DNA of 57,593 bases, the filler included, from Dugesia japonica (Eukaryota), in the NCBI GenBank assembly GCA_001938525.1. It is 5 parts of 5 records of this genome, joined end to end, with 100 filler letters (N's around TTAATTAATTAA, not from the genome) between each part and the next. Parts side by side here need not be neighbours in the genome. Positions count along the whole stretch, not along the records: positions 31,550 to 41,063 come from MQRL01360255.1; positions 41,164 to 57,593 come from MQRL01557826.1; 3 more parts are not named here. One strand, given 5' to 3'. Each line of letters starts with the position of its first letter. The first letter of the stretch is position 1. The notes under the pieces are model-generated. The model did no database searches. It was not told where the DNA came from and saw nothing but the letters and a program-made list of their open reading frames with translations. Positions 6,940-54,689 of this stretch are shown here, one piece after another. The translations under genes and the position numbers were made by a program.

Positions 6940-7057
6940 CTGATAAAAAAATTAAATAAATAAATATAGAATATAATTATTTTCTACATTAATATTATTT
7001 TTCAGGAGAAAATAATGAAAGGAAACTAATTTAAATCTTGAATCATGAAATATTTAA

Positions 7058-8680: not shown

Positions 8681-8844
8681 ATGGGAAAAGAAATTCTATT
8701 AATAAGCGTATTTTGCAAAAAATTTTTTATAAATTTGAGACAGCATAAATTAAAATATTCTTATTTGATAAAACGATCTAAAAATAGTTATTTGTTTACT
8801 GGCAAGTATCTAATGATGAATATCAAAGACAAAAAAAAATTACC

Positions 8845-31549: not shown

Positions 31550-33543
31550 TTAGAAGATGCCACCGCATTCTACACCGTCTCCTTCTAGAAAGACACCTGA
31601 AACGTAAAGCTGACAGAGCGATAATTATTTATTTAACGCCACGTTACAGTATAGTCTTGCTAATTACTCAAGAAAAATTATCAACAGTCGGGTAAAGAAA
31701 CTACGAGGAAAGAATGGTATGAAAATCAGGAAAATAAAATCAAACCATGAGTGTTGGGTACATCGATTCAATTAAAGCATCGTCAAGAATATTCATGATG
31801 ACCACTAGTAAACGCGCTAAGATTTATCTTAGAAAATCAGCAAACAACTGAGATTAAAAACACGGAAATTGCAGAAAGGAGAATCATGGGCGCCAGAAGT
31901 GAAGAAATCGCCAATTAATCAACTATGGCAAGGTAATGGATCATTCTTGGAAATAAAGAGAATGAAACAAAATTATCAATCACTACAAGCTCTCTATCTA
32001 AAAAGAACTTTAACAGAAGAGTGTGTAAAAGAGAAAGACGCAAAATTATCGGAAACAAATGTGACGGACGAATTAAAGAAGGGAAATCTAAAGTAAAACA
32101 ATTTGAAATATGGACGATTCAATATGAAAGGACTAATCTCACAAAATGAATGGAGACCGTTATGTCAATCGTGTCTAATAGGTGTTCAAAGGGTTACGAC
32201 AAATAATCAGAAGTATTGGGCCTTCAATAATCAAGTGACATCACAAAATAGGGCGAGGCGGAGTCAATGCCACGTGAAAAATGCAAAGAATGGGAGCTCA
32301 CCAGATGTCCAGTCACCAAAGACAATATCATGAATTTATGCGATAAATGTTATCGGAGTATGGAGAGAGAGACATGAAACGATCACTAATACAAGTTGAA
32401 AGTAGAAGACAATGGTTAATCAAAACTGGCGTATGGGAACGTTCGAATTGTATTAGTTGTGTCAATGCAAAGGTGAACATAGAGTTGTCAGTGTTAGAAG
32501 CGGTGTTTAAAGATTTATGTTTGGAGTGTGGAATCGATATTCATGGTCAATTAAAGGATGCGGTAAATGTGCTGTATGAAGCAAAAAAATGGATAAAGTT
32601 AATACAAGCCATGAATGTTAAAGGAGAATTCGTGTCACCAACAGAACAAAAGAGACGATGGAAGGAGACCAAGCGTTGGATGCAAGGAATCGACGAGGAC
32701 GTCGATTCTATGAAAGGGGGGAGTGATTTGAACGAACTACTAATCGAAGCAAGCTTTATGAGAATATATCAACAACTATCTAATAAAAAGCAACTAATCA
32801 AAGAGATGTAAGACGGTAATAGAGTTTTCGGCGATTTATCAAAACGAAACGTACAAGTAACAGTATCAGATGAGACTAAGCAAAGTCTGAAAGCTATGTG
32901 GGAAGACCACATAGTGTCAGGAGGAACATGAACCGGAAACGAATGATACAGAATACAAAGCAAAGTCAGCCAAAAAGATGGCGGAAGTGGTACAATTTAT
33001 AAAAGAAAACGATGGGTAAGGGGACCCTGACGTGGAACAATTGAAAAGGTTGGTACGGCTAGCGCCAACACAAGAACAAGTTTTGGAAAAGTTGGAGAAA
33101 ATAAAACAAGCAGGAAGCACTACGACAGATGAATCTGAGAAAACGACAATAAGAATTGAAACAGCGAGGGTAACGTCAAATGTGCTAAATAAACCACAAG
33201 AGGATTTTATTGATCAATTGATGCGAAAGTTGGTAAGGACCGGTTCACGAAGGAAATTTCTTGCACAAGTCAGGTTGAAGCATGAGGTGACAACAAAGCA
33301 GAGCAAAAAGGAAAATGAAGGGAATTGGTCAGCAGGACTCAGTGGTGGAGTAGTGGGCGTCATTACGATAATCATGATGATGAAATGAGGACAGTATCCG
33401 AGACTGCGATTAGAACCGGAATTAAGAGAATTGACAGCGAAATATTTGCATCTGCCAAGAGAGTTGGTGCGATCGGGAGTTCCAAAGGGAGGAACTGAGT
33501 CGTTGTGGAGTTATTAAAGGGAATAGTGGGAGTGAAGTTCTAA
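31550..33543 (+). pseudogene. Long degraded ORF, possibly the C-terminal half of a non-LTR-type RT protein (thumb, Cys-rich region) with a long extension
   Basis: Coding-like, co-oriented fragments joined by frameshifts and stops: VLGTSI....W..LVNALRFIL (compare RT YLG..I...W..L), KYGRFNMKGL (compare K.GGL.L..L), and CISC...C..C. The catalytic core is not seen because it is cut by the linker. Confidence 0.4.
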
Positions 33544-33713
33544 ATAAGTTACCTGAAATGTAACAGTAAGGTACAAAATTTAGTTTTTGAGTAGCTCGAA
33601 ATGTAAAGTAGGGAATAGTTGATTAAATTGAAATTAAAGTATCGAGTAGTTGGATAAATTTGATTTTGATATGGATCACTATAGCGTTTATCATAGTATT
33701 TATTTAGTAAAGA

Positions 33714-34229
33714 ATGGAACATAAACAGATGACAATGAATGGACAACTAACAGTAAATGTGGATCTAGACGACGTCGACAGAACAATTATGGAAGAACCG
33801 GCACAAAATTATATCCAGATGCTTAATCAACCTTTAAATCCTTATTTTACAATGGAGAACTTGTGTGACGAACCCTGCAGAAGCGTAATGAGTAATTCAG
33901 ATGTACTAAATGAACAATTACAACAAACCCGGCAATTAAATGCAACCCTTGTGGAGAACCAAAATTTTAATGTGATTCAGATACACCGATTGATTAAAAT
34001 AGAGGAGAAACAGAGACGACAGATTACCGAGAATCAGAATTTTTACCTACAAACCTTGAGTGGAACTAACAAAATAGTAGAGGATCTGAGACATCAAGTG
34101 GGAGAGCTACAAGCCTATAATGCAGAGCTTATTTTATCCCAAATTAATCGACTACCGAGCGTATCCGCCATCCTGAACACTATCGAGACGAGTGAGAGGG
34201 TGTGGTACGGAGAAGAGAGTAATCTATGA
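33714..34229 (+). CDS. Hypothetical coiled-coil protein (171 aa), cargo of a putative giant element
   Basis: Intact intronless ORF with Q/N/L heptad-like composition; AATAAA downstream near 34309. Confidence 0.6.
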   Translation: MEHKQMTMNGQLTVNVDLDDVDRTIMEEPAQNYIQMLNQPLNPYFTMENLCDEPCRSVMSNSDVLNEQLQQTRQLNATLVENQNFNVIQIHRLIKIEEKQRRQITENQNFYLQTLSGTNKIVEDLRHQVGELQAYNAELILSQINRLPSVSAILNTIETSERVWYGEESNL

Positions 34230-34420
34230 CAATGGATGCCAAGATGTAGAGTACTGTAAATTATGTGTTAAATAGTAACTGCATTAATATGCAAAAAAAT
34301 TTTTAAAAAATAAAACTTGTATTATAAAAATCAAAAACAGTAAAAGTATAATAAAAGTAGATCGACAATTATATTTAGTTAATCAATGCGTAATTAGAAA
34401 AATTCCAATTTGTATAAAGA

Positions 34421-34926
34421 ATGTCTGAAGATTTTCAAAGATTGTGGAGAAGACGATAATGATGGAGAAGTCAAGTTTAGATCAGAAATCAATCACAGAA
34501 TTACAACAAATTAATTAGAGGATCAAGCATGATAATGTATCATTTCGAGGAAATATTTGGTTATCAAAATGCTATCTTGAGAATAGTGGGAGTACTGACG
34601 ATGCAAAAAGTAAATAAAGATAATAAATAGCGGAATGCATGTTATTGGAATATCAGCGAGCGATGGTGGGAAATGTTCAATTTTTCAATGAGGTTCAGAA
34701 GTCAGTCGACAAGATGAAAGAGTTTGAGGACACGGTGTCATTAATATGCAAAACAAAAATGGAAAAGATGATGAGGTGCGGAGAATGTGAGGTTGAAGCA
34801 GTCTCGGTATTAAATTTACCTTGTGGAAATGTAGCAGTTTGTCAGAAGTGTCATCAGAGAAACGAGTTCAAACGATGTATAGTGCGTAAATGACCCATTG
34901 AGGAGTGGCATGTGGTGTACCTATGA
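34421..34926 (+). pseudogene. Coiled-coil plus C-terminal RING (IAP/MDM2-like) E3 ligase, decayed
   Basis: 34777-34926 reads CGEC-x7-NLPCGN-VAVCQKC-x8-CIVRK*PIEEWHVVYL*. H>N, C>R and the stop are each single-base changes from a terminal RING-HC. Confidence 0.75.
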
Positions 34927-35106
34927 GTGTGACACCCAGTAAATTGTAAATAAACTTAAACTACAAAATACAATACAGTAAAAGTAACAAAGGAAACCAC
35001 ACTAACAATTTGTAAATATCAGATTCAATTAAAATTTGGTTAAGCAGTAAATTTTATAATCAGTACTCCCAATGTCTTAATGTGTAAATATTTAATATTA
35101 TGGTTT

Positions 35107-35758
35107 ACGTGGATTTCCATTAAGAAAATGGCATTCCGAAGTTCAAGTAGTAGGTCTCGACAGGGAGGAGCAATCAAACGATACTGCGAAAATAGTGATC
35201 AAACCTATTCAATGAATGAATCTATAAAGACTTGTGAGGTCAAGGAGAAAAGGAGTACAAAGGCGCCTAGAGACGAGATAGAGCCATCTGAGCTGAGAAA
35301 CGTTGAATTGAAAAATCCATCAACGGAAATGGAATCACGAGTAATGCGATGTAATGTACGAATTCAAAGAGAGAGTGAGCCAATAAATGATATGGTTAGA
35401 ACTTTTTGTAAAAACTTGCGCTGAAAGAGAGGAGGTGATACTAAAACTGCAACGAGAGCTAAATGACGTCCTTTAGCGACCAACAAAGCAAATCAAAGAA
35501 TTAGAAACCGAAATTAAATGGCAACAGAAGAAAATCAAAATGCTAGAGAAAACTATTGAACGTAATAATGAAGCTCGTATTACAAATCAACAAGCGCAAC
35601 AAGAGACAATGAATCAGATGCAAGAAGATAATGAGCGACTGTTGAGAGAAAGCTTAGTATGGAAATTGGAGAAAGAACAGAACACGATAGACATTCAAAA
35701 TCTAGAAAACACATTGAAACATCTTCATGATGAAAATGCGAGGAAGTCCCAATCCTAG
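35107..35758 (+). pseudogene. Coiled-coil protein, frameshifted
   Basis: ORFs 35080-35424 and 35540-35758 are linked through EVILKLQRELNDVL*..QIKELETEIKWQQKKIKMLEK. Confidence 0.55.
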
Positions 35759-37550
35759 CAGTGATTCCCCCTCAACAAGTCAATTTGACGAAGGTAGAAC
35801 AAACAATTTACACTTACAAAACCAATGGGCAACCAAATTAGTCAAGTCGACCAAAGAGCGAATCAGAGAAGGAAGGATCAAGTGAAATCTTCCCGCCAAT
35901 CCACCAATACAAGTCAATCCAACCAATGGCCATATTCAGCATCTGAAGAAGATTTATTCTGGGGTCTCTAACCCAGTAGTTTCGGGCAGTTCTATGCTGT
36001 GTATAAACTATGTAAATATCATTCGAACTTATGTGTGAAAACTATTTATCTTTGTGTCTATGGCAATTATTATCACCAGATATTCTGACAGTTCTATGAT
36101 GTCCATTTTGTCGTTTCATGTGTATTCTATGCTGCTAATCAATCCCGAATCAATCCAGCTATCTTCGAGCCGAAGGTGTCCTCCAACCCAAATCTGTCGT
36201 CGAAAAGAAGATCCAGCTAAGTAAACTTTATGATTGTATAGTGATCCTATGGTGAGATGATTTTGATATTATTATTGATTGAAGTGATCAGGTTCTTTAT
36301 AATGACAATTATGATTTAAACATTTAATATAAATTGATCTAGTGGTATAATTGAATTGGAGTGCAAATCTGCATGTGTATTCAATATATGATATGTTTAT
36401 ATTTGATTGAAATATTGTAGTTTCAATTTTATTATTTTTTCTTCTTATTTCTATCTGTGTTTGTTTTATGACCTATCAGAGTCTTGCTTGAGGGAACTTT
36501 CTGACTAGAGTATGAATGATAATCGAGCTCTCATAGACCCAGTTTTCGTTAAAGGAGTGTTATAGAACTGAGAAAATTGGCAGCCAAGGTTAACAAAGGA
36601 ATTTAATGAGAAATTTCGGGGTGGAATTTTTTCGAGGCCCCCAGTATTTTGTTGGGCTAGAAATCAATGGAATTGATAAATAATCAAAATGAGATTTCCT
36701 GAAAAGAATAACGGCGAAATAAGAAAATAAATGATGAACGTGAACTGAACCAGAAAATGTGGTCAAGAAAATTATTATTATTATAATTATTATGGCGTAT
36801 TTGAAAATACCGAAAAATGAAAATCAGGCGTAGAAGACCCAATTTCGGTGGTACAAAAATGAAAAATATATGTACCGAAAGGCAAAGATTAGTAGAATAA
36901 CAAAAATAAAATACAATACTATAATAATTTATTAACAAAAGATCTCTACGATCTGTTTTATTTATTATAATAATGGATATTATCCATTTAATATTAATTA
37001 ATTTGGTACAGTCATCATTCCTTGTCTAGCTGATGAAAAATAAAACGAAAATCATCATTAGACCAGCTGAATCATTTCCTGCTAGACAAGGTCTTTCCCT
37101 CAGTAACAATCTGAGGTCACACAAGGTGACTGATGTCGAAGAAGTCAGTTCCGAGTTGGTGTGCGAGAAAATGTCGGTCGGATAGAAAATGACGAGCAGC
37201 CTCGATTTTAAAATTGGTGCTGTCCAGTCAGAGGAAACGAATCGCAAAAACCAGATCCTGATTGGCAAACTAATGAATCGTTTCAAGTTGGGGTGTAAAC
37301 GAGGAATAAAACTCGTTTGCAGTGGAAAATCAGTAAGAAGTTAAAATCAAATTTTAATTCTTTTGCAATTATTCATACCACATTTTATTTAAACCAATTT
37401 CTACAGTTATACCTTTAGTCAACCATTATTGGAAACGGCAAATTTATCAAAAGTAATTAAATTTTATTCTTACCATTATTCACTGTTATAAAATCATCTT
37501 TTATATGTAAACGACGAGTGCCCTGATTCGAGGTTGTGTTCCCGGAAAGT

Positions 37551-37725
37551 TCAGAATATAATTATGAAAATTCGTGAATAGCAAATATCAATCGGCTAAT
37601 CCATATGAGAATTGAGAAAAAAGAAACAGAATGATCATCAGAATATAATTATGAAAATTTGTGAAAGGCAACTATCTATCGGATAATCAATATGAGATCT
37701 GCTAAAAAGAAACAGAATGTCCATC
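37551..37725. repeat. Diverged tandem duplication, 87-bp unit
   Basis: TCAGAATATAATTATGAAAATT...AAAGAAACAGAATG begins at 37551 and again at 37638. Confidence 0.85.
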
Positions 37726-38378
37726 CAGAGTTATGGGGAGATTAGAATAATCCGGAACTGAATAAAGACAGTGGTGGTGAAATGTTATAGTTATCGGAAA
37801 TCGAGTGTCGAGTAAAACGGTATAGTCGTGTGGGAGCTCGGTGACTAAATAAAGTGTATAAAAAATTTGTTCGTTGTTCTATCTCGTCTAATTTTTTCCT
37901 TTTTAAGTTTTTTTTAATTCGTTGTTCCACGTTATTAATATAATTTTTATTACCTGTCGTTATTTAATTTTTTCTCATAAGGTGTAAATTACCAAATATT
38001 GTTGATTACTTTTATGTCCATTAATTTTTCTTAAATTATTGAACATCGTTATAATTGAGAGTTTCTAAATTGTCATCTAATCATTAATAGTTAAAGACGC
38101 ATATTTTTTGTTTATAACTTAATAGTCGGATCATTAGTTCGTTCTCCTAACATGAACAATTTAAGTGCAGTTGATTGATAATAGGGACATCTTCTGAGAA
38201 TTCCAGAAGATGGTGAACGAGAAAAGATGGTGGTATCCAGCTGACATCTTCCATGGTTCAATCTCTAGGAATGGGGACGAAAAAAACGTTGCATTAATAA
38301 AGATTTAATTTGTTTCGTAAGCTTTGAATTTCATCTATTGTTGTTATTAAAATTTTGATAAATTTATTTAACAGAATC

Positions 38379-38717
38379 ATGATCGAGTACTATCAACCGC
38401 ACATTCCGCTAGTCCTAACAAATGACGGAGACGAGGGAACCTTCTGGGTTCCGTGGAGGAACACATTGGAGCTACTAAATGAGCAACGTACCGAATATGA
38501 GACAGAAAAAACTGAATTGCTTCATAAAGGTGGACAGTTGGTGGTGAAGTTTCAGTGTGCAAAGCAACAGTTGGTCGCTACCCAGAGAAAGCTACAATTA
38601 TGCCAGCAGGACAATGAGTGGCTCAGACAAGGAATAGAGGTCATCAAGGGGAGTGCTGCCCGATTGGTAACGCAACAAGTGACGAGTCGGATGCAGTTGG
38701 ACCAACTCGAGGATTAG
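38379..38717 (+). CDS. Hypothetical coiled-coil protein (112 aa)
   Basis: Intact ORF MIEYYQP...LELLNEQRTEYETEK...QQLVATQRKLQLCQQDNEWLRQ. A TTTAACAG acceptor lies just upstream and AATAAA near 38792. Confidence 0.55.
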   Translation: MIEYYQPHIPLVLTNDGDEGTFWVPWRNTLELLNEQRTEYETEKTELLHKGGQLVVKFQCAKQQLVATQRKLQLCQQDNEWLRQGIEVIKGSAARLVTQQVTSRMQLDQLED

Positions 38718-39109
38718 ATCCTGTGTCGCAGGGTCGGAAAGTTATCAAGATCCAATTATTTTAAAAGTTGATTCGCTGGCTGGAACTAATGAATAAATGA
38801 TTGTATATATTGGAATTGTGTTTGGTTATTTTGCTTATGAGAAATTAGATTCTGGTGATATGTATGTCACAATGTGGTCAAAACCTTTTCTTTTATGTCT
38901 GCAGAGGCAATCTTAGGTTTAAATGTGTTGGTTTGATCATTGTTTTCATTCTGTGTAACAGTACAAATATGGAACAAAAATTTAGTCCAGTAGTTATTAA
39001 ATCATATTAGTTCTTGGATAGCCAATTAAATTCCTATTAGTTGTTTCATTTAATTAATTATGTTCACAGTTTTGTTAAATATTATTGTAATTTATTTTCA
39101 TCTAAAATT

Positions 39110-39358
39110 TTAGTGAACAAATCAAATGATGCAAAAGTGTCGAGGGGATGGAACCACCGCGCAGCAAAGATGAAAAGAGAAACGAAAAGAGTAGAGAAAT
39201 GAAATTCTGAGGCCATATATAACCAGATTAAAGAAAAGGAGTTGTCCGTTCAGTACGCGAATAGGTTAATAGCAGACATCATCAAAACATATGCCGACCG
39301 GGAGAGTTCGATGTTTGTTTCGTTAAGAACACTATGGCTGAATTACCGTGTGCCATAG
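39110..39358 (+). pseudogene. Coiled-coil gene remnant with ADIIKTYADR motif (homolog at 45.5-45.8 kb)
   Basis: QIKEKELSVQYANRLIADIIKTYADRESSMF. Confidence 0.6.
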
Positions 39359-40114
39359 CCATCAAACGAAGCCATAGAGCAGACCATCGATTGGGACGCC
39401 GATTAATGGATGTTAAATATGAATCAATAAATATTAGTGGCTGTGGATGTGGTGTTTTGGTTTTCTTGGGATTTTATTTGTTGAAGGGGAATTATCACAA
39501 TAAATTTTTACTGAGCATAAAGAGGATTGTTGCTGTCTGGGTTCAGGTATTCAGTAGATAAGACGCGATACCGCAAAATCGCGCTGAACCTGTGGGAAAG
39601 AGGGGCACGTCACAGAGGAGATGCTACAAGCCATAATCAGTAGTTAATGAAAAATACTTCACTAGCGATGGCAAAGGAGTCATAATTATTCCATGAATTA
39701 AATTACGGTAAAGATGTCAATGGCACACTTTCATAAGCGTAGTGGTAATTCTGGCATGCTTAATTTTTCTAACTACCTCTACCACTGGCAATTTAACGTT
39801 GAAAGCAAGGATTAAGGGATGTTGTAATTTCTGGGGATATTACTGGCAGTGACAGAGTTATTATTATATTTATAGCAAAATGGTTGACGTGTTTATCGAC
39901 ATTACGCCTAACTGTAAATAACACTAATGGTAACAGTAAGACGAACCCAGGTTTAAATATGATAAAATTAATCAACAGCTATGATTCGCTATCCAATTCC
40001 TAACACTCATTGTTTGAGTAGCGGTTTAAAATTGTCTCTCGTGATTAAATCAGCGGGTTGCTATTGACTTTATCTCCATCACTTACTAATTATCGATTCA
40101 GTAATATTTATCAT

Positions 40115-40371
40115 ATGAATTTAGATTCATTTGAACAGCTAGTGGCGAGTATTATTGATGAATTTACTGCTCAGTCACAAAACCAAACACAAGTACCCCC
40201 TGAGCTGACCAACTTTATATCTATGATTTTATGTCAGTGTAGACTATTTCCGCTTTATATCGATGGATTATTCAGAGCAACTGTAAGTAAAAATCACTGA
40301 GTGGTTTTACTGGGTCCTAGTGATGAAAACGGGTTGGTAGTCGTCAGCAAGTGGGATCGGCATGATCACTA
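40115..40371 (+). pseudogene. Hypothetical protein, last ORF of the array (one internal stop)
   Basis: MNLDSFEQLVASIIDEF...; AATAAA near 40425. Confidence 0.35.
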
Positions 40372-43199
40372 AGTGCAAATGGATTGGGAACAACTAGAAA
40401 TTAATAGTGTTTTCTGGAATGATAAATAAACAATTTGTGCATTGTAGACTGTTGTGATAATGTTTTTTTATTTAATTTGTGTGTAAGTATTATATGTATA
40501 TACATACATCCATGTATTACATAGATATAATTTCTATAATTGTTGGGGAAACACAAACACCAACTACTAATTAAAACATCAACAAAAAACACAATACAAG
40601 CACAAACAAACCACAACAATCAGAACAAAATCCAGCTAAAGATCAACGCAACCATTCAACATCCAGAAAACCGGCAACTTCTGAATTATTTGAACTTTGT
40701 TGAATTCGTTATCAAACTTTTGTGATTTGAATTTTTGTGAAATTAACTTTAACTATTCGGACTTTTGTGATCGATTTTGACAATTTGTAGATATCATCAA
40801 TAATTATTTATTTTTAAATTTTTCGATGTACTAAATAATTATTGATTTTAAAATTTTCGATATACTGTTGAAGTCTGAATACATCCAACACATAGCAAAG
40901 TACATACATAACATAGCATGCAGGGAAAAACATAACATAACAACAACTTCAAATCAATATCTACAACAAGTTCGAATCAACACCTGAACTTAAATCATTT
41001 AGAGATTATTAAAATAATTAATGAAGCACTTACTAAACTCCAATTAACACTTAGTTAACTTTANNNNNNNNNNNNNNNNNNNNNNNNNNNNNNNNNNNNN
41101 NNNNNNNTTAATTAATTAANNNNNNNNNNNNNNNNNNNNNNNNNNNNNNNNNNNNNNNNNNNNGATGCAATTACATCACAGATTAAGATATCAAATTACC
41201 GATAATCGCACTAATTACGTAAAGGGGGCGGGGGGGTCACTGAATGTGTGCTGGCTATGACTGCTACTATCTATCTACTGTATTTAAATGTTTGTAATAG
41301 TTTAAATTTAAGTTCCTCAATGTTGTTATCAATTTCAATAATAGGAGAATTATAAGTTGGTATCGTGCGTCTGAATGNNNNNNNNNNNNNNNNNNNNNNN
41401 NNNNNNNNNNNNNNNNNNNNNNNNNNNNNNNNNNNNNNNNNNNNNNNNNNNNNNNNNNNNNNNNNNNNNNNNNNNNNNNNNNNNNNNNNNNNNNNNNNNN
41501 NNNNNNNNNNNNNNNNNNNNNNNNNNNNNNNNNNNNNNNNNNNNNNNNNNNNNNNNNNNNNNNNTTCAGTAATGAGTAGTAATACTACCATCAACCACAA
41601 AATTAATATAATTAAAGGTGAAAGAATTCAAGATGAGAATACAGATGAATCATCGTAAATAATGCGAAATTATTTTTGTAGATGAGAAGGTGGTTAAAAC
41701 ACATTATGAAAAGTTTGAATAATTAAATTTAGATGAAATAATTAATTGGAATATAAAATATTTTACACATGAGATATATAGAGGTTACAAACAGTTTTGA
41801 GAGTTATTTTAAAATTTTAAAGGATTCGTTCCCAAACTCTCTGTTAATAGCAAAAATTAAAAAGTTGATGTACGATCAATGGAATTTAGATGTGGCTTAG
41901 TAATTTGAAATCATTCTTGAATTTTATTTGGTGAAACATTTTTTTGAAGGTTATTTGTAAAAGTTAACTTTGAGTGTTTTCAAATATTCTTTGTCGATGT
42001 AATTATTTTTAAAGATTTTTGTAAAAATCAATTTGCATGTAAGCGTTTTATTGTAGGACGTAATTTTCAGATTTTGAGAAGACATGTTTGAAAACTATTT
42101 GTGTTGAGAAATAAAGTTTATTCAGTTTGATCTGATTCAATTCAATCTTAGTAATTATTATTTATTTGGATTATTGAACTCAGTCAGATATTTAATTGTG
42201 TCCAACTTGAATAGATCTCAAGTGTCGTGACAACTTTAATTTTATGTTTAATTGATGTTTTAATTTTATGCATTATAAAAATTGATAAAAATGAATTAAC
42301 TGTTAAAAAAAAATATTTTAATTTCATATAAAACTTTTTAAAAATAAAATTAGTTTAATAATGTAATATGTAAATTCTTATTTAGAAAATAAAAAAATTA
42401 TTAATTTTCATTGAATAAAAGTTATAAAGTAAAAATCATAAAAAATATAATATATAAAAAATTTAAACGACAATAAAATAAATATTACCAATAATATCTA
42501 AAAATCATTAAAAAAATCCATATATGTTTAGAATTGATTTAATTCAAGGATTTATAATATTAAAAAATACAAAAAACATTAGCAATTTTTCTATAAAAAT
42601 TAATGAACACCATTTCATAAAATATTTATTTACTGCAAGTAATTTCGACGGAATAAAATCGTCACCAGGCAATTATTGATTATTAAAACAAACTATTTAT
42701 AAATTTTAAATGATTATATACTTTCATTTATGAAATCTTAAGAAATAATCAATAAAATAATTTTAAGAGCGATGTTGAATCTATCAACTGAACACTAATT
42801 TTTAAAATTTAATGCACTTATCGACAAAGCTTCACATATCCCTCTCTCACAATAATTGATTAATTGAATTAAATAAATATTTTATGAAATGGCGTTCATT
42901 TATTTTTATATATAATATTTTAATCAATATTCTCCTCGTTTAATAATAAATAATCAATAATTGGACTATAATCACATTAATTTAGTTACTGGTTATTTAT
43001 AATCATAAGAGTTAAATTGATTAAATATTTATTATGAATAATGAGCTTAATTGAAAAATATTCAATTATTTCGTTTTTTTAAAAACTTACTTCCACTAAA
43101 ATCACGCTTCACCAACGCCATAATAAGAATTGATTCACTTTTTATGAGATAACATTCTTTACATTTAATTATTCTTTTATAATCCTCATTTGACAATTT

Positions 43200-44910
43200 T
43201 TATCTTTTAAAACTACTTCTTTGTTTTCAATGTTTTCTGAATCTTAATTGCACTTTCTACAAAAAACATTTTTTCATATATGTCACTGGGAAATGGTTTT
43301 CATATATAACTGAGTAATTAATAATTCACCAGGTTTCCTTTAGATTAAGGTGTCCAGAAAATGAATCTAAAAGTCGATTGACGTCTCTAAAGTGAATTTG
43401 ATGTTATCATTAATACTATTGGCTCGTTCTACAATATTTTCTAAAGGAGAGTTAGTAACCAAGAAAATATCTTTTAGAATAAAAGCTTCGATCAAAATTT
43501 TTGTTTTTTTTAATGATACTTGATAACAATTCGATATCGAATTGCTATCAAATATCAATAAAAAACAAAAATTTTGATTGAAGTTTTTATTTAAATGAAT
43601 TCTGTAAAACAATCAATGGTTATGTCCAACAATTATTCTCGCAATAATTGCAATTGTAAAAGAAAATATCGTCTATATATATATGAATCATAGATGTATC
43701 TTCTTCTCAGCTTTGAGAACAATTTTATTTTCAATGAAGTTCATTAAAATTATCGCTAAAATGGGAGACAAATTGTTACCCATTGATAGATAACTTTTTT
43801 GTTTTAAAAGTTGTTCATCCATAAAATGCTGTCAGAGAATAGACAAAAACTGATAAGAGATTTGAAATCACTTTTAGTGATTTCAGGAATATCTGTACGT
43901 GTTTATCTTTCAAAGAAATCACTTGCAATATCGATAACATTTTCCGGTCCTTCAAAGGGAATTGATCCATAAAGATTTGCTACATCTAATGAACCAAATC
44001 GATCATCGTTGTTCCAGTCATAATTCTTAATTCGTTCAACAAACTCATAACTATTTTTAAAATGTGCTGGAAGAAAGCTTAACNNNNNNNNNNNNNNNNN
44101 NNNNNNNNNNNNNNNNNNNNNNNNNNNNNNNNNNNNNNNNNNNNNNNNNNNNNNNNNNNNNNNNNNNNNNNNNNNNNNNGATGAAACTGGTTCATGACAT
44201 TTAACTGCTGAAAATAAAGATTTTATTCGGTCTTCATATTTCTCTGCAATTTTAATTAAATCTTTATTAAATTTACTCTCTTCAGTAATTGGCAGTCTTT
44301 TATGGATGATAATCTCATAATTATTCAGATGTTGAGAGAAGAAATCCTTGTATGTCTGTTCAGGCAAAGCTATCAATTTATTTGTTTTGTCTGTTGGACT
44401 GATGATGATTGATTTCAAATTCTTTATTTCTTTAATAATTTTGTTTTCAATATTTTTAAATTTAATATTCTTATTATATTTGTAAGTTTCCTGAGTAAAT
44501 CTATATTGTTATCAATTTCTGTACTAAGATAATTGTACGTTGGTATTACCCTTCTGAATGATTGTTTATACTTCGACTTTTATGAAAAAATTGACGAATT
44601 ATCTGGTGTTTCAAATGTTGTATTTTCTAGTCGGTGTAATTGGTATTTGAGACTGTAAATGGAATCTTCAATCATTGCAATCTTCAATCATTGCAATCAT
44701 TGCAAATTGGAAGAGTCAGAGTCTCCTGAATTAACGGGGATATAGCTTGGTCTTTTATTTAACAATTCAATTTGTCTGTCAGTAAATGTATATGTTGTTA
44801 AATTTTGGAAAGGAAGAACAGTTATATTGTTTGTAACATCTGAGTGAAAATTTATTTTCATTTTGATTTTCTCTTCTGTTTTCGTTTTCTCAGCAAGTAG
44901 AGTTTTCAAT
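43200..44910 (-). mobile_element. Penelope-like element RT, degraded
   Basis: IIISPTDKTNKL, FKNSYEFVERI, FGSLDVANLYGSIP, MGNNLSPILA, YIDD|IF (split by an insertion), NSINDNIKFTLE. Confidence 0.88.
43472..43659 (+). mobile_element. Fold-back short retroelement inserted into the PLE RT active-site motif
   Basis: Perfect 11-bp TSD AAGAAAATATC at 43461-43471 and 43660-43670. The palindrome is centred on CAATTCGATATCGAATTG, and the family tail is present. Confidence 0.85.
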
Positions 44911-45505
44911 TTCTTTTGTTTGTTGAGATCATTAATGTTTTAAATTTTTCATATATTTCTTCATTTTCATTTTATAGAGAAAATGGAAGTGGTTTATTTT
45001 TTATCAAATAATTAAGTTCACAATAGAGTCTTTTATGAAGAAGCGTTATCCATTGAAAGCTTTGACACTTAGAAAGTTCTTCGGATTGATGACATTGAAA
45101 AGTATTCTTGAATTTTTTGTAGTTCTAAAACCAAATGGTATTAATTCTAGTCTTTTATATTCTTTTAAGTTTGATATGATTTTTAATTTTCTAGATTTTC
45201 ATCGCATTGAATAAATCAAAAAGTCCAAAAAGAAGCGTTACCGACAGTATTCATTTGACTATCTGTCATATGGATTTGACAAAGGTCTTAATTATGAAGC
45301 CGTCAAACACTTTTAAATTTTATGCACTCAGACATAAAAGATAAGCCACTGGTTTATTTTATTATTCTGCATAAGCAATTCGAAGAACGACAAACAATTA
45401 TCAACATTTTTCAAAATTGAGTTGTTGTTAATCTTATTAAGAAATTTAAAAACATAATAATATTCATGAAATTTAGTTACAAAATTAGTTACATAATACA
45501 TTGAT

Positions 45506-45810
45506 ATGCAACTCCAGCTAAATACTTATTTCCATTCAGTGTTGACTTTAAAGATCCCATCATTAGATACCTCTATAACTGATCTACGTAAACAATGGTG
45601 CACCTTGCACAAAAAGCTTTAATTGAAGCTTGCAGATCTGAGTCAGAAGAATACCAAACTACGTGAACAAAACAAAAGTTTAAAGGAAAGAAACTTGACC
45701 CAGTCTCAATCGAGCCAAATGATGGCTGATATAATAAAAACTTACGCGGACAGAAAGAGTATGTACTGAGAGCTAGGACTCTTGGAATCACGACACCATC
45801 ATGGTGAGGA
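45506..45810 (+). pseudogene. Coiled-coil gene remnant homologous to 39110-39358
   Basis: MQLQLN...DLRKQWCTLHKKL*LKLADLSQKNTKLREQNKSLKERNLTQSQSSQMMADIIKTYADRKSMY*. Confidence 0.6.
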
Positions 45811-46014
45811 ACAAAAACAATGTGATAACAATCGAAGATGTCTCATAGGTAAAAGTTTGAAATATATAAATAAAACTTTAGTTGTGTATGTGGTTTCAAG
45901 AGAATGTGACAATGAGCAATAAGAAAATAAAAAGGTCAAGTTAATAGAAAGATGGAACTGTAGAAAAAATTCATTCTCATTATTTTCATANTTGATATTT
46001 CATAAATTGATATA

Positions 46015-46253
46015 CATTAACTACTCTCGATTTCTAGAAAATGGCGGCTTTTAGAGTAAACAATAATAAAATTTATTTAAAAATCCAGTAAAAAATTTAT
46101 TTCTTTATTATAAAAATGGCGGTTATTAGAGTTTGGCGGATAAAAGAGTTCGTGGATAAAAGAGTTCGTGGATAAGAGAGTTGGCGGATAAGAGAGTTGG
46201 CGAATAAGAGAGTTGGTGGATAAGAGAGATGGCGAATAAGAGAGTAGTTACTG
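46015..46253. mobile_element. pogo/Tigger-type MITE with expanded 16-bp subterminal tandem array
   Basis: TIRs CATTAACTACTCTC and (rc) CAGTAACTACTCTC, TA on the left. About 7 copies of GAGTTGGCGGATAAGA at ~46129-46245. Confidence 0.75.
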
Positions 46254-46312
46254 TTATAAATAAATAAAAACAAAACATTTCCTAAAATGTATTATTAAAA
46301 TGTGTTCAGAAA

Positions 46313-49300
46313 TTAAGATTTTTCATATAATAAAATATATGGGCAAATATTACATTTGAAATCAAAGAAGGACACTTGATCATCATTTATTAAATACCAA
46401 TTATTCTTCCGTTTCCTGTAAGTCACATAATGACCTCCGGAAATATTTCCCATGTGATGGATAATTGCTGTCAATTTATAGTGAACATTCACAACTTCTC
46501 TTAAAACCAAAATATTAATTAAATATTTAAATAATATTAAATAATATTTTAATGAAGAAATTCATTAATTTCCTAAAATTTACATTTTAGAATTCTCATT
46601 ATTATAACATTTCGCACCAAATCGGAGATCTTCCTCATATTGAATATGATATTCCGGTTTGATCATTTCTTCTTTCTCACTGCTCCACTTATTAGCTTGT
46701 ATATGTAAAAGCAATAAATTTGGTGGCTGCCCCAAAAACAGTATATTCGATGATTTTTTAGGATCATCATCAATTATTGTCGGAGCAAAATGTTGATATA
46801 TTAGATAATTTAATGTAACTCCAGGAGATTCTTGAAATTTGTAAATTAATCCGANACAATTACAGAAATCTATCACTTTTGTATTCTCCAGATAAACCGA
46901 TTGATAAACCAAGATGAAACTGTGATTTACTGGGGATATTAATTCCAGAAAATGTATGCATCATTTCCATTATCAAAGGCATCGAATTCTAAATAAATTT
47001 CATCAAAAATAACTTAACACGCAATTTAATTAAATATTTATTCAATACAACAAGTTTCGACAGTATATATATCTGTCATCTTCAGGCAAAAATAAAAATA
47101 TAAATTTAACATGGGACTCTCTCTCTCTCTCTCTTCTTCTTATTCGAAGTCACGTACAAATATTTAAACTTTTATGTCTTCGCTAAAGAAATGAATTGTA
47201 GAAAAATTAAATTACGAAACGAATAATTAAATTGTTCTGAACTTGAATAATAATTTAAATGTTAAAAAGGTTATTAAAGATCTGGATAAATCTAATATTA
47301 TCGATAAAATATGTTGTGTTGTAAATATGTCTTACTCCGAGGGCTTTAAATATTTACAAAACGATTTGCTAAAATATTCAGTAAATCTCTCAAAATTTTA
47401 AACTGTCTCTCTCTGACTTTTAAAATAATAAATGTATTCAGCAAGAAGTCTAACACTCATTATGGATTGATTTATAATCTTATTTATAAATCTGAGTGTA
47501 AGGGGTGTATTGCTACATACATAGGAGAGACGTCTCATCTGTAAAAGGATTCAGGAACATATCGCAATCAAAGTGTAGAACATAATAGTCCGTGCTAATT
47601 AATTGAATCTCCAGAATCAATACAAATTCGACAAATCACAACCTTTAATCATAGTAAAATATTCCTAAATCTTTGGTATCTGATTTTAAAATTTTGGAAA
47701 GTCGTAAGTATAGTATCATTTTTGTATTGATAATTTGTTTTTGATTTGCAGTGCGTGTATTTAAGATGTTTATTGCTTGGTTTTTTAAAATTTATTTAAA
47801 TTAAAAATTTAATTGTTTTCTTTTGAAATACCCTGTAAAAGGTATGTATATTTTTTATAGTTATTTAATTTTCAAAATTTTTATTTAGAACAAACTTCGC
47901 TTTTTAGAAATAAAAATAACTTCAAAGAAAAAATTCTAGAGTATTCAGCAATCCAGGGCAGGATTAATATGAAATTAAAAAAAATTAATTTCCTTTAAAT
48001 TCTCAAGAAGTGTACCATGTTATCTCTTGTATTGTTATTAGCATGATTTTCAATATTTTTTAAAACATTAGCTTTCAATTTTTAAATTTGAAAGATTTTT
48101 AGATTTAGAGTAAACTGAATGGAGTGAATTATTTAAGTATTAATTATTATCCATTATATTAAAATTGTGATTTTATTATAAAGTTAACTTTTTAATTTTC
48201 AGAAATTTTGTTTATTTAAAAATCCGTTTATGCAGTTATGTTAACATTTGCATTTTGAATTTACTATTATTAATACAGTTGGAAATCACTTGTAATAATT
48301 TTTATTGTAATCAAATAATTAACTTATATTAGCAAAATTTGATTTTTATTGTGATCAACATGGAATGTTAAACATTGTAGTTCTAAATTTTCGATTTAAT
48401 GAATTTGTGTATCGCTAATTTAGATATCGCTAACATACTCACAAAATAAAAACTATTTATTGCTAACAGACGGGGCTCATCCTAATGAGTAGACTATACA
48501 TTGAATTGTGACAAAGCACTGTATTTGGGCGCCTTTTACTTTCGATTTAAATAATTAAATATTTTCGATTTCTCCATGCATACGGTATTTTAAAACACTT
48601 TTTTACCAAAACAATATTTTTGGTTAAACATTTGTGGAAATTTTTTAAACTTACATATTGAAAAAGGTTAAACCCATTTTTTAGTAAAAAAGTATTCAAA
48701 TTCAAAAAAAATTCAAAGCCATCTTTAAGTTGTAAATGTATTAAACTTTTTAGACATATTAAGTTAAATATTTTCCATCTCTTTAAAAGATGATTTGAAT
48801 AAAAATATATTAAAAGAAATTTCAATTTTGGTTTAAAAAAATGGAATTTTAAAAATCCAGGAGCAGAAAATTGAACTATAAATTCAAAAGTTGCAGGGTC
48901 AGTTAAATAAATATTTGTAAAAAGTAAGAAAACACAACTTGAAACAGAAAAAAACAAGAAAATGAAGTAAGCACTTTGAATAAAGAAAATAATGGTGAAC
49001 AACGGCCTTTCGTGTTAACACTGTCAGTTACTAATTCCATCCAAAAAATCCAGCCTTCAAATCAACATTAATTACTTCAGAGCGAAATATTAAGCCTCAG
49101 AGCCTTCAATATCAGTTTCTACAATTGATGTAACCAATTTCAACTCAAATGATCCTGTAAATTGGCGTGATCTAATTAATAGTAAATTTCGCAAAATCAT
49201 CGTTGAATAAGGATCTCAACAAATTAAACGAAATAAATAGTGGTTTAAGTTATCATTATTATCAGCAAAAACTACCAAACCGTAATATCATGTCAAGATC

Positions 49301-51540
49301 ATGACTTGTATATTCGATATCTAGAAATTATGTATTTTTTTTTATAGAAATTATTTAAAAATGATTGACATCAAGTAATGGCTATACAGAAAAGTAGACC
49401 GGCTACTTATTTTCTCTCAAAAAAGTAAACTGGGAGTGAACGTGTTAATTATTGATTTGAATGCTATGATTAGAATTATGGATACCATAGCAACAGTCGC
49501 TCTGGAAATGCTGCAAAACATACACAGTCTGAGATTGAATATAGGCTTACCTATTATACAGAACAAATGACTCATATTTTGAAATTTATTGATAATAATA
49601 TAAGTTCTGCGAGTTTTGAACTTTTTGCTACATTTTCATGTAAATAAATTATATAATTTACTCCTCTGATAAATTTTAAAGTTTTTTGTTTTGTACGATT
49701 TATTTATATTAGTTTAAAAAATGTAATTAATAGTTAGTGAATTGAACCTTAATAATGTTGAAAAGTTAAAATAATTATTGAAAGTTTTTACTTTATTTGA
49801 ATTTTTATGATTCTTTATGTCTTTATAAATAGCGTTTAATATGGCCGACAATAAATCGTAAGAATCCTAGATTAAAAATAAGAAATCGATATTAAATTTA
49901 ATTATTAAGCTACTTGTTGTGCAACTTTTTGCCAACCAACCTTTCTGATTAAAGATTCAAGTTTCTTTGAATTTTCATTAATTTTCGAATTTGGATCATT
50001 AACACCTGATTATCGATTTTATTATTGATTCTTTAAAAGAATTTGAATAAAAATTTTTAATAAATAAATAATAAAAGTAGAAAAATAAAAATGGAAATTA
50101 TAATAAATAAATTTTTGTATAAAATTAAAATAATTTAAACAATTAAAATAAAATTTATTTACTTAAATATTTTATGGTAATTCATTAAAATAAAAGCTTC
50201 GATCAAAATGTTTTTTTTTATCATAATCCTAATTTTCGACTTTGTCTTCGTCAGGAATTCCCGAAAGTCAATTCCTGGCGAAGACAAAGTCGAAAATTAG
50301 GATTATTATCAAAAACAAAACAAATGTTGATGGGAGCTTTTATTTTATTGATTTCTGAAAAACAATCAATGGTTACGTTCAACAATTATTCTCGCAATAA
50401 TTTTAATTATAAAATTTTATGATAAATTTAAAATATTTTTGAAATTGAAACAAGGCGTCCAGAATTAATCAATAGGAAGGCATTGTGTTTTACCATGACA
50501 ACGTCAGACCACATGTGTCTTTATTGAATCTGCATAATTTGAGGAATCTTGATTGGAAGTTTTGTTGCATCCTCCGTATAGTCATGATATTGCACCGTCA
50601 GACTATCATTTGTTTTATTCATTGCAGAACTCACTTAATGATGCAAAATTGAATTCAAAAGATGACTATGAAAAGCGCTTATCTCGATTATTCATCGAAA
50701 AATTTTAGAAGTTCTACATTGACGGAATTCTAACTTTACCAAAAAATTATTCATATGTACTTTAATAAAGTTTTGAAATTGACTTCATATTTTTAAATTT
50801 TCATATTCACAAAATAATTTTAGACAACCCACTATAAAAATTAAAGTATAAATAAATAAAATTTATTTAAAATAAAAGATTCGATCAATAAAAAATTTTT
50901 TAGATTGATTTGATATTTCGACTTTGTCTTCGTCAGGAATTGACTTTTTCCTGACTAAGACAAAGTGAAAATATCGAATAAATCTCAAAAAAAAAATTTG
51001 ATCGAAGCTTTTATTTTAAATNAATTCTAAAAAACGATCAATGGTTACGTCCAACAATTATTCTCGCAATAATTCTATTTGTAATTGTAAAAATAAATTT
51101 ACATTTATATTAAAATTTCGCACAAAAATTTTTAATTTTTTTTATTAGCTATAAAGGAATTGAATTACGATGCATCATTTTAAACAAGAGTTATAGTATT
51201 AATAATTTTAAATATTACTATTAAGAAGATCAATGAGACTGTCCAATTTAGGATAAGAATTTTTCAAATCATATTTCAAGTTATCAAGTTGTTTTATAAA
51301 TGTATCATTGGATGCCAATAATTGGATAATTGAATTCATATAGCATTCTGCGGAACGATTATTCAATCCGGTAATTTCCTTGAGTGTTTCGGAGTTATTT
51401 TTTGTATCTCCATTAAAAATAAACTTTCCCAACTGCTTTATAATTTCATACAATCGATTTCTCAATCGCCTTATAAAATGATATAATAAATAGAGCAACT
51501 CTCTGGCCAAACCAAATAAAAATCTAAATATCCACAATAG
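46313..51540 (-). CDS. Ubiquitin-specific protease (peptidase C19), USP30-like; exons ~51540(or further 5')-51219, 46988-46584, 46499-46313; apparent 1-nt frameshift near 46955
   Basis: Hydrophobic N-terminus, Cys box GLNNRSAECYMNSIIQLL, PPNLLLLHIQANKWS, His box YKLTAIIHHMGNISGGHYVTYRK, WYLINDDQV, PYILLYE. Splice phases fit. Start codon not resolved. Confidence 0.8.
47045..47090 (-). ncRNA. Hammerhead motif in an inverted PLE pseudo-LTR
   Basis: CTGAAGA-T-GACAG(ATATATATA)CTGTC-GAAAC-TT-GT, with a 5-bp stem II, next to a PLE endonuclease remnant. Confidence 0.65.
47200..47710 (+). pseudogene. Penelope-like GIY-YIG endonuclease remnant
   Basis: NLIYKSECKGCIATYIGETSHL.KRIQEH. Confidence 0.8.
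49100..49350 (+). pseudogene. hAT (Tip100/ZMYM-type, TTF zinc finger region) transposase remnant
   Basis: NDPVNWRDLINSKFRKIIVE*GSQQ...YYQQKLPN...SRS*LVYS..RNYVFF. Confidence 0.55.
50181..50413 (+). mobile_element. Fold-back short retroelement with two inverted hammerhead motifs
   Basis: Minus-strand hammerhead 50225-50259: AATTC-CTGACGA-A-GAC(AAA)GTC-GAAA-AT-TA-GGATT. Plus-strand copy at 50270-50304. TSD ATTTTATG(G/A)TAA at 50169-50180 and 50414-50425. Confidence 0.82.
50445..50835 (+). mobile_element. Mariner 3' remnant (mellifera-like)
   Basis: RPELINRK.IVFYHDNVRPH, HPPYSHDIAPSDYHLFYSLQN. TIR-like end TAGACAACCCACTA|TA. Confidence 0.85.
50866..51090 (+). mobile_element. Fold-back short retroelement with two inverted hammerhead motifs
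   Basis: Minus arm ATTC-CTGACGA-A-GAC(AAA)GTC-GAAA-TA-TC; plus arm ...GAAAATATC-GAAT. Family tail present. Approximate TSD AAATAAA(A)TTTA. Confidence 0.78.
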
Positions 51541-51672
51541 AGCTGCAATAAAACAGATATAATTAATAATGTGATTGTAAAATACTAAAAAAGAAAATAT
51601 ATTCTCACAATAGGATCACTGATAAAATGATCTCTATCATTTTTGTAGTAATAATACTAATGTTTTATTATA

Positions 51673-52151: not shown

Positions 52152-52989
52152 TATAGTACATATCCATAGTGGCCAAACTGCGGCTCTTCTGTGTATTCAA
52201 TGCCACTCTAGACAAAGCCAATGACATTTATTGGTCTGGCAAAAATTTAGTTTAAAAATTTTAATTAAAAAATACAACCCTTCGCCTACAAGAGTTACGA
52301 TTGTATTCGTTTTAATACCATGTATTTTTTGTTTATAAAATACGCGTAGATTTTTATACTAAATATTATTAAACAATTAAAACATTTATCTAATTGAATA
52401 GCTATTTTTCTGTACTAAGTATATTGGAAATATTCGGTATGTATATAAAGATTATAGAGTGTATAAACCCTTTCACCCCTATTGGGACAATATGTTTAGG
52501 AAAGCAGACACTAAGATTTAACATATAACAAACATACATTCATACAATAATACATAAAAAACAATCAACATAGAACATAACAAAGATCAACCAAAGAACA
52601 ATCAGAAGCCAAACAGAGTGATCAACTCAACAGAAGTATCCAAACAATTCAAATTTTAAAATTTATTAACTTACATTGATTTGAATTTTATCAACTTATA
52701 TTGAATTGACTGATCGAATTCCGTGTATAAATTTTTATTTTTGATTTTGTTGATGTATTTTAATATTTTTTTTCGATGTATTTATAAAATAATATATATG
52801 AATTTATCAGTATTCACAAAAATATTTACACTGAGATTATCAATTTTAATTTGGAATATCATCTCCGAAAATTTTATGTAATTTGTTGATTTGGTTAGTT
52901 TACGTGATTTATTATATGTAAAAATTTTTATTAATAATTATGAATACTAAAATATTTATTATAAATGTTAAAATCATAGCGCAATTCCA

Positions 52990-54130
52990 AAATTGGTTAA
53001 ATTTCCTAAGTAGCCTGGAGATGAGTATCGAATATCGAATGGGGGAACTACACAGTAATGCAGACATGGTGTCAAGACCAGAATGCGAGACTTGTGTACA
53101 ATGCCAAACCCAACACGAAGAAGCTAAACTAGAGAAACCTAGAACGCGGAGGCTGAATGTAGTAGAGAAGGACCTGGATAGCGAGACATAAGGAATGCCA
53201 GAGAAAGAAGACGAGGTGGCCATTTAGAAGACGCGTAGACTACTCACACACGTGGGTCCGGAAAAGGTGTTCCAATATATGAAAGAATCTAAAGAATCAA
53301 CTAAAGAATCTGAAGACAAAGATCAGACAAATTATAAGCACATGCCAGGTGTGTCAGAAACATAAAGTCTTGACTGTAAAAACCAAAGAAGAAACAGCGA
53401 AAGTACAAACCACAGAGCTCTTCACAGATATATATGTAGACCTATGCGGCCTATTCAAGGAGACGACGAGACAGATGAAGTATATTCTCGGAATAATAGA
53501 CCAATGTAGTAAGTACATGGTTTTGGTAGCAAACCGCTAGCAAGATGAGAACACAATCCAGAAAGTTATTTTGCATAATTAGCTACTCAAGTTTGGTTGC
53601 CCAATGCAAATTCACGTGGACTGTGGACAGTCTTTCGAATTGAAGGTAATGGACGAATTTTCCAAGAGATGGAACGTAGAATTATGTTTATCGAGACCGT
53701 ACCATCATAATACGAATGGGAAAATCGTGAGACAGTTCATGACAGTACGGGATTTGCTAAATGCAACATTAAAATACAGAAAGAGTACAGATCGGGCTGA
53801 ATTACTGCCAGAAATATAATTTGCATTGAATTCGATGTGGCAAAAATCTATAAATACCAGTCCAGCGGAATTTATCTTTGGAAAAAAATAGCAAGCGAAA
53901 ACTGGAACCAACAAGTAGCAGAGAAGACGGCACCAAAGACGACAACCAAAAGAACCCTCGAAGATGGAGAGGAAGTGTTAGTAAGGACCGAAAACAGGAA
54001 CGTTTTGAGGGGCCTTACCAGATAGTAAAAAAAGTACACGATCGAAGATACTTATTGAAGAGAGATGACGGGAGACAAATAGAAAGAAATGTGGAAAAGT
54101 TAAAGAAATTTTTTCGAAGGGGTTATGAGA
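52990..54130 (+). mobile_element. Ty3/gypsy pol remnant (end of RNase H, integrase, GPY/F)
   Basis: IEYRMGELHSNADMVSR, THVGPEK, CQVCQKHK, DIYVDLCG, IIDQCSKY, PYHHNTNGKI, RFEGPYQIVK. Purine tract at ~54116 followed by TG. Confidence 0.9.
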
Positions 54131-54689
54131 TATTATATAAATTGAAAATCAGAATTAAAATAAATGATATTAAATTAATGTTTAATATCGTTATTTCAAT
54201 ATTCAGTTTTTCAGATTAGTTATAATTTTGAATTAATAAATTTGAGGATTTGTCTTCGGATTTTAATCAAGTTAACAATCACTATATCTACAAATAAGTA
54301 TCAACTGGATTTCATCTTAAAATAAACTATAGAACTCACGTAAAATAGTTGATTTGCCTTTGCGAAATCCTAAAGGCATCTCAACAAATACGTCCCTGAA
54401 ACTTTCATCATGATCCTACTGGGATATTTTCAAAGCAATTTGCGGTGTTAGAGTTTATTTTCAGTGTTTCATTGTTCTAGGATATTCAGAAGCGCCACGA
54501 TTACAAAAATGAGAATATTTCAAATTTAGGTCAATATTAACCAGTTCCAATANATAAATTTAGCTTAGTGTCATCAGCGGAAAGTCAGTGCGAAAGGGTT
54601 AAGTGAATGTGATGGATTGAATATCGGTTTTAATGATAAGTGAAAATGAATCTAAATTTATTATCATCAAAATATTTCACGAGGGAAAA

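Follow-up and report, generated by a model that had tools for sequence, protein, structure and literature searches.

Planarians harbor decayed giant multi-domain gypsy elements, and it has been raised as an untested possibility that such giant retroelements interfere with ubiquitin and apoptosis systems (PMC6431247). Burro, which exceeds 30 kb and has paired long terminal repeats (LTRs), encodes a core of Gag, protease (PR), reverse transcriptase (RT), RNase H (RH) and integrase (IN) within a polyprotein of ~4,900-5,100 amino acids, and its accessory domains include AIR1, Smc, MATH, BIR, ankyrin, BCL2-like, SUMO-like and env (PMC6431247). LTR elements with spliced extra open reading frames (ORFs) downstream of pol are also known (PMC5408684). 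On the protein side, a VIDLT core with acidic flanks binds SUMO, and tandem motifs gain avidity (PMC3901395).

Here, we describe a small gene of which two broken copies, copy A and copy B, lie in a 57,593-nucleotide stretch of joined pieces of the Dugesia japonica genome (GenBank assembly GCA_001938525.1), spacers included, hereafter the window. Both copies encode the decapeptide ADIIKTYADR, the conserved core of a coiled-coil family that also has unbroken members elsewhere. Our overall reading, to which we assign a probability of roughly 0.55, is that a large gypsy-like LTR retroelement carries it as an accessory gene in its 3' region and that the gene product would be a coiled-coil adaptor. 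Annotation is lacking for most accessory genes of giant retroelements; the present family is small and expressible, with seven members sharing a defined conserved surface and tail, and its motif could serve as a sequence marker for element subfamilies whose DNA no longer aligns. The window itself is animal DNA rich in A/T and in repeats, and it contains spliced host genes (for comparison, >70% A/T is given in PMC11410931). Its AT content, its repeat load and a short AT-rich intron would suit a dugesiid planarian.

The decapeptide pair and its relatives

The two decapeptides lie on the plus strand (Table 1) and differ in 8 of 10 codons, all nine base differences being synonymous. A preliminary description had reported this pair together with the preceding stretches, IKEKELS in copy A and LKERNLT in copy B, and its coordinates and translations were reproduced. 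As it also remarked, neither copy is in the ORF track; both are missing from the list of 80-amino-acid ORFs because the stop-free stretches around the decapeptides are only 51 and 48 residues long. The span it gave, 39272 to 45754, encloses a real pair but not a meaningful distance: identical 100-base spacers (at 8845, 21782, 31450 and 41064) divide the window into blocks, with copy A inside the block 31550-41063 and copy B past the next spacer, so that their closeness (~6.4 kb) carries no information.

Coiled coils yield spurious matches, and a chance match, or convergence between two unrelated coiled coils, had to be weighed. Among 402 pairs of shared six-frame 10-mers lying more than 100 bp apart within the window, the ADIIKTYADR pair is the only one with at least five codons different, and 0 of 30 composition-matched order-3 Markov windows contained such a pair. 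The likeness is not confined to the decapeptide, as a chance match in the terms of the preliminary description would have it: a self-search of the window extends it to 25 amino acids at 52% identity. Furthermore, a search with copy A returned one match (of one candidate), the unbroken 112-residue protein P0003 (E 3e-21), which aligns with copy A from end to end (E 2e-29) and with copy B over 62 ungapped residues (E 2e-8). These alignments, the window profile search and the invariance among seven sequences described below refute the chance explanation, whose probability we put near zero.

A profile search gave two matches among 571 candidates and added P0004. The profile of P0003 and P0004, run against 1.84 billion proteins, found six: both queries, P0005-P0007 (E 2e-18 to 3e-9) and P0008, a 1557-residue PAS/histidine kinase without the motif. 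The latter is just such a spurious coiled-coil match; it was dropped, and all family counts exclude it. Run against the window, cut into 1137 stop-free pieces, that profile matches copies A and B and nothing else. The five outside proteins (P0003-P0007) are unbroken, 83-112 residues long, and stack without gaps on the two copies; over a 34-residue core, identity among the seven sequences ranges from 32 to 79%, copy A grouping with P0003 (79%) and copy B being distant from all (32-44%). Six residues, D70, K73, Y75, A76, D77 and R78, are invariant in 7/7 sequences. All five outside proteins are unnamed, unannotated singletons, each on a contig of 508-1894 bp.

The preliminary description had also considered that the pair might belong to a known host gene family, and no such family was matched at a curated cut-off. 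For the coiled-coil family, Pfam gave no entry at its curated cut-off (best E 0.0096), the PDB gave no significant match (best E 0.15), and known coiled-coil families (bZIP, DivIVA, CENP-U, SCOC and others) gave neither a match at cut-off nor a significant solved member. A likeness to NEMO-type ubiquitin-binding coiled coils was dropped, there being no such Pfam match. Two members scanned against PHROGs gave one weak match of unknown function, the Atlas search returned generic helices only, and no relatives were found in viral contigs, JGI metagenomes or prokaryote genomes. No paper came up in a full-text search for the motif in three forms; Grohme 2018, supplements included, lay outside the scope of that search and may already map the ORF. 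Judged from their sequences, copies A and B and P0003-P0007 form an undescribed family of small coiled-coil genes, and the best reading of the two copies is that they represent two subfamilies, separated long ago, of a single small gene without a name.

Over 25 aligned codons, copies A and B are identical at 15/25, 20/25 and 6/25 of codon positions 1, 2 and 3 (35/50 for positions 1 and 2 together); the proportions of synonymous and nonsynonymous differences, pS 1.06 and pN 0.31 (Fisher p 2e-4), give an inflated contrast, the stretch having been picked for its identity. The 19 codons upstream of the decapeptide, taken alone, show a trend only (pS 0.82, pN 0.53, p 0.15). At saturation 4.3 of 10 codons would be expected to be identical and 2 of 10 are, so the difference at 8 of 10 codons denotes saturation and nothing stronger. 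The better evidence for selection is the alignment-wide invariance across the seven sequences, rather than the codon contrast between the two copies. Purifying selection on an uncharacterized motif, as first proposed, is thus upheld by saturated third positions, conserved first and second positions and the residues invariant in 7/7 sequences. This selection lies in the past, as stops and frame changes have since broken both window copies; it acted on lineages while these were active. The proposal that the cargo genes were functional would hold for the time when the lineages were active but not for the two copies as they now stand.

The repeat around copy A compared with known retroelements

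Both copies are pseudogenes. In copy A, the first third contains two frame changes and, in the frame that the relatives follow in this part, stops at 39171 and 39192; a further internal stop is at 39356 and the terminal stop at 39404-39406. The start of copy A lies 54 codons from the invariant D, versus 60-64 in the other members. Copy B has a stop at 45620, and its frame ends at 45767, four residues past the decapeptide; an RTL triplet like that of the family follows at 45775-45783 in another frame.

Contigs matching the block around copy A at 85% number 5069 in run X1 and 4247 in run X3, mostly at less than 95% identity; in run X1, 372 contigs match at 99% identity or more and 3650 at less than 95%. 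The summed depth in the bin of copy A, which is not a copy number, is 1168 versus 5-6 in single-copy bins. Copy A is therefore embedded in a decayed, dispersed high-copy repeat. The stretch 39802-40435, at single-copy depth, may be LTR or flank. Copy B is low-copy in run X1 (its own locus, an 809-bp match with 8 differences at depth 11, and two relatives), and a high-copy repeat piece lies directly upstream of it. Shared upstream DNA of the two copies was rejected: 1/300 shuffles reached its score, but so did 24/321 other window stretches. Downstream, sharing is weak only (0/300 shuffles, yet 11/514 window stretches score as high).

About 190 bp behind the stop of copy A, within a bin whose coverage is among the deepest in the block, is a purine run that we take to resemble the polypurine tract of LTR elements. 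A candidate 3' LTR would begin ~2 nt past this run, at 39608, and a single inverted match (2 mismatches in 8) occurs at 39847-39854. The gene is very probably cargo of a mobile element, and that element is probably of the LTR type. On the best reading, the block behaves as a large LTR element would at its 3' end, and we do not assign it to Burro. The block starts at a spacer (31550), may hold only the 3' part of the element, and has heavily broken frames.

The likeness to Burro and GYPSM1 is one of general build: in each case an AT-rich animal repeat, large and present in many copies, has accessory ORFs and includes RING-type and coiled-coil parts, its copies are decayed by stops and frameshifts, and ubiquitin and apoptosis regulation recur as themes (PMC6431247). 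However, none of the defining domains of Burro is found in the 9.5-kb block and no 5-kb LTR was seen, and PMC6431247 names neither a small coiled-coil ORF with the motif nor exon-like accessory genes with poly(A) signals. The bdelloid LTR retrotransposons Vesta and TelKA carry ORF3s downstream of pol as separate spliced units, some with coiled coils; in PMC5408684, these are env-like with transmembrane segments or GDSL/DEDDy enzymes, whereas the family protein has 90-110 residues, no transmembrane segment or enzyme fold, and seemingly its own poly(A) signal. Terminons, the giant Penelope-like elements of bdelloids, have many co-oriented ORFs, coiled-coil ORFs and hammerheads according to PMC6431247, and one decayed hammerhead-like fold is present here; unlike them, our block has a polypurine-tract-like run and no Rfam hammerhead. 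No Athena-type RT was found in the block, and no telomere-like tandem array beside it.

The decayed type I hammerhead-like fold (37020-37089, plus strand) lies in one of the deepest-covered bins of the repeat and has a 10-bp outer stem with CTGATGA and GAAA cores; Rfam gives no hammerhead there at E up to 5. Hairpins at ~37220-37285 and 39525-39600 resemble this fold or each other (0/200 and 2/200 shuffles). A BCL2-like domain suspected at 33200-33712 from motif likeness was rejected, with no Pfam or PDB support, and a tRNA search found none.

Gene build, product and rival explanations

Both copies begin behind T-rich, acceptor-like AG|TG sites. By a rough score, the site of copy A belongs to the best 0.8%, and that of copy B to the best 2.3%, of AG sites in the block. 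GC content rises from 26-27% ahead of these sites to 43% behind that of copy A and 37% behind that of copy B. From its start to the invariant D, copy B has 63 codons, close to P0007 (60), P0006 (61) and P0005 (63), and to the 64 that precede the matching V of P0003. Each copy is followed by a polyadenylation-like signal, the weaker one behind copy B (Table 1). The AATAAA sites behind two further frames, at 38374 and 40101, rank 2 and 5 of 190 by downstream G+T share. The former frame was rejected as a distant paralog of the family (E 0.55, hhalign probability 0.2%). The latter (40101-40300, AATAAA at 40425, plus strand) also has an acceptor-like start and a G/T tract; its depth is that of single-copy DNA, and it may not belong to the element. 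We give an even chance to the view that the gene is expressed as the last exon of a spliced transcript, uses a poly(A) site of its own and has its first codon completed by splicing. In flatworms, a spliced leader may end in AUG; as the source of the start codon it was rejected here, a stop following within two codons at both acceptors.

For 38200-40400, the records list no RNA holder. Strand was fixed in runs X14 and X15 by reads of a minus-strand host protease gene. Sense reads on the decapeptide bins reach a depth of 1.1 (X14) and 0 (X17) for copy A and of 2.4 (X14) and 0 (X13, X15) for copy B; over the copy exons, depth is 0 to 2.4 versus ~146-184 at the peak of the neighboring host gene. 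No RNA read in any run is 99% alike to the window, host gene included, and the few sense reads probably come from relatives. They are weak evidence that some relative of the family is transcribed and no evidence for transcription of copies A and B themselves. Elsewhere in the block, stranded run X14 shows more antisense than sense reads at 36632-37582 and 39485-39801, and about twice as many sense as antisense reads at 33145-35680, all at low depth and from relatives.

The P0003 model, predicted from a three-row alignment, is a single helix (residues 16-105) with disordered ends (mean predicted local distance difference test [pLDDT] 78, predicted TM score 0.42). Hydrophobic residues occupy 84% of heptad d and 55% of a positions, versus 21-33% at b, c, f and g. 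By this register, only Y75 of the six invariant residues sits at a core position, and the other five would therefore mark a partner-binding face rather than mere packing. We consider it rather likely that the protein forms a parallel coiled coil with an exposed D-x-x-K-x-Y-A-D-R face that binds a partner; whether it would act as a dimeric adaptor on host regulatory proteins is about evenly balanced. All five unbroken members have a basic N-terminal part (net charge +4 to +6) and a net-negative tail with the acidic motif [TV][VI][DE]LD, which turns up a single time among the 115,182 residues of the six-frame translation of the window and is modeled in P0003 with pLDDT below 50. This tail is reminiscent of the SUMO-interaction motifs of PIAS1 and RNF4, with a short hydrophobic-D-L core, acidic flanks and predicted disorder, and two tails on a dimer could give avidity, as tandem motifs do (PMC3901395). 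The differences from the motifs described there are that the core is not VIDLT (D at the third position in 3/5 members, E in 2/5, last position mismatched), that there is one motif per chain, and that no RING is in the same chain. By analogy, the tail might bind SUMO and thereby engage or blunt host silencing or ubiquitin pathways, which we rate as somewhat unlikely. If it does, an animal transposon would encode a candidate counter-silencing protein; if it does not, the gene would be an ordinary dead cargo gene.

The picture would thus be of a large gypsy-like LTR element whose 3' region holds this small accessory gene and which expresses it through a spliced terminal exon ending at a separate poly(A) site. 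The gene product of 90-110 residues would be an adaptor of the coiled-coil kind that bears a conserved binding patch and whose acidic tail may bind SUMO. Selection would have kept the core while element lineages transposed, each inserted copy then decaying neutrally. A far bolder version, which we hold to be very improbable, has a row of alternative terminal exons with poly(A) sites before the polypurine tract of a giant LTR element, one of them encoding a SUMO-binding dimeric adaptor; in trans with the RING protein of the element, this adaptor would form a split SUMO-targeted ubiquitin ligase directed at silencing factors of the host.

Several observations weigh against the LTR-borne adaptor gene. 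No LTR pair or target duplication was seen, nor a second LTR in the window; six-frame searches of 31550-41060 found no gag, protease, RT, RNase H or integrase, and the block gave no match to BIR, ankyrin, MATH, BCL2 or env. Among 413 candidates, no longer relative of the longest ORF of the block (33711-34226) was found. Behind copy B there is no purine tract, and this copy has lost the family tail. The T with which the VIDLT core ends is absent from the family tail, which in copy A has W as its fourth residue. The acceptor score was devised after the sites had been seen, the candidate splice donors are weak and several (six for A, two for B), and no RNA junctions occur at the predicted introns in X14 and X17 (A) or in X13, X14 and X15 (B). 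Internal sense-strand poly(A) sites would truncate the genomic RNA of an LTR element. Lastly, P0003-P0007 are known from short contigs in which their genomic context is not visible, and the "element family" of the preliminary description therefore depends on the surroundings of copy A.

Introns and separate poly(A) sites would need no special explanation if the gene were cargo of a large non-LTR element, be it a Terminon-like Penelope retroelement, a multi-gene DNA transposon or an endogenous DNA virus. Such an element would agree with the several GC-rich frames that have acceptor-like starts and AATAAA sites with G/T tracts (ranks 1, 2 and 5 of 190), with the hammerhead-like fold, with the coiled-coil ORFs and hammerheads of Terminons and with the lack of RT or integrase in the block. 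We nonetheless think it unlikely, given the single polypurine-tract-like run at the expected place, the lack of an Rfam hammerhead, of any transposase, capsid or polymerase match, and of relatives in viral contigs. Alternatively, a lineage-specific host family of small coiled-coil proteins might have had some copies captured by, or scattered among, repeats. The low copy number of copy B, the exon-like build, the unbroken relatives of similar length and the few sense reads would suit a host family. Yet copy A sits among other broken ORFs in a high-copy repeat, both window copies are broken, none of the six matches in 1.84 billion proteins is annotated or named, and RNA depth on the exons is far below that of the neighboring host gene, which makes a host origin improbable.

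A different question is whether, in the same gene and element, the protein would be structural or RNA-binding (particle assembly or ribonucleoprotein scaffold) rather than a regulator of host pathways. Its basic N-terminal part would fit such a role, and coiled coils of retroelement ORFs are linked to dimerization and ribonucleoprotein assembly in PMC5408684. However, the protein shows no Gag, env or transmembrane feature, and a short conserved acidic-hydrophobic tail would better suit a linear binding motif; we regard a structural role as quite improbable and retain the adaptor as the preferred product.

Coordinates and other features of the window

Table 1. Features at and around the two gene copies, in window coordinates.
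Feature	Position	Strand	Basis or remark
Spacer-bounded block with decayed element	31550..41063	+	GC-richer, purine-skewed, many broken ORFs
C3HC4_3 (IAP-type) RING-finger-like end of broken ORF	34771..34902	+	Pfam PF13920 E 6.6e-4, 19.9 bits, under cut-off 27
Neighboring unbroken 113-codon frame of the same build	38374..38717	+	Acceptor-like start, GC-rich, AATAAA 38792 and G/T tract
Copy A, broken coding exon	39114..39406	+	Behind acceptor-like AG 39112-39113; profile E 3.4e-22
Decapeptide of copy A, conserved core of coiled-coil family	39272..39301	+	Six-frame 10-mer comparison, family alignment
Putative polyadenylation-like signal of copy A, AATAAA and G/T-rich tract	39426..39471	+	Top G+T share of 190 plus-strand AATAAA sites
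Polypurine-tract-like run	39594..39605	+	No other purine run of at least 11 nt, on the plus or minus strand of the window, ends in GGGG
Spacer (N run, TTAATTAATTAA, N run) between copies A and B	41064..41163	.	Same spacer at 8845, 21782, 31450
High-copy repeat piece directly upstream of copy B	45230..45416	+	Up to 47 contigs of run X1; candidate association with gene only
Copy B, broken coding exon	45540..45769	+	Behind acceptor-like AG 45538-45539; profile E 1.9e-8; low copy in run X1
Decapeptide of copy B	45725..45754	+	Six-frame 10-mer comparison, family alignment
Putative weaker polyadenylation-like signal of copy B	45869..45914	+	Rank 14/190 AATAAA sites by G+T share

Between copies A and B, a broken relic on the minus strand (43370-45227 and ~41316-41375) presumably derives from a Penelope-like RT, judging from a motif; it has no Pfam match. 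Past copy B, a small repeat with a 16-bp tandem array (46014-46258) is skipped in one contig of run X1 and is likely a polymorphic insertion. It is followed by an expressed host gene for a ubiquitin-specific protease (46313-51615, minus strand; Pfam UCH), whose intron 46500-46583 is spliced in 3/3 RNA runs.

A divergent beta-tubulin-like gene with two open frames lies at 28943-30125 (minus strand), and exons at 2683-6976 (minus strand) encode a Cys-rich finger that has weak zinc-finger matches only and that we liken to KDM3-type JmjC demethylases. Broken frames at 9484-14000 (plus strand) contain the P-loop GASGNGK, presumably from a Polinton-like packaging ATPase relic, and we take 15699-17396 (plus strand) to be a hAT-like relic. 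Pfam identifies a mariner transposase relic and two gypsy integrase relics among 1223-2219 (minus), 21064-21750 (minus) and 52922-54216 (plus), and, above cut-off, a TBP-like fragment among repeat relics (19187-19381, minus strand; PF00352). A family of short palindromic repeats resembling miniature inverted-repeat transposable elements occurs at 2489-2637, 8443-8682, 43474-43661 and 50185-51086.

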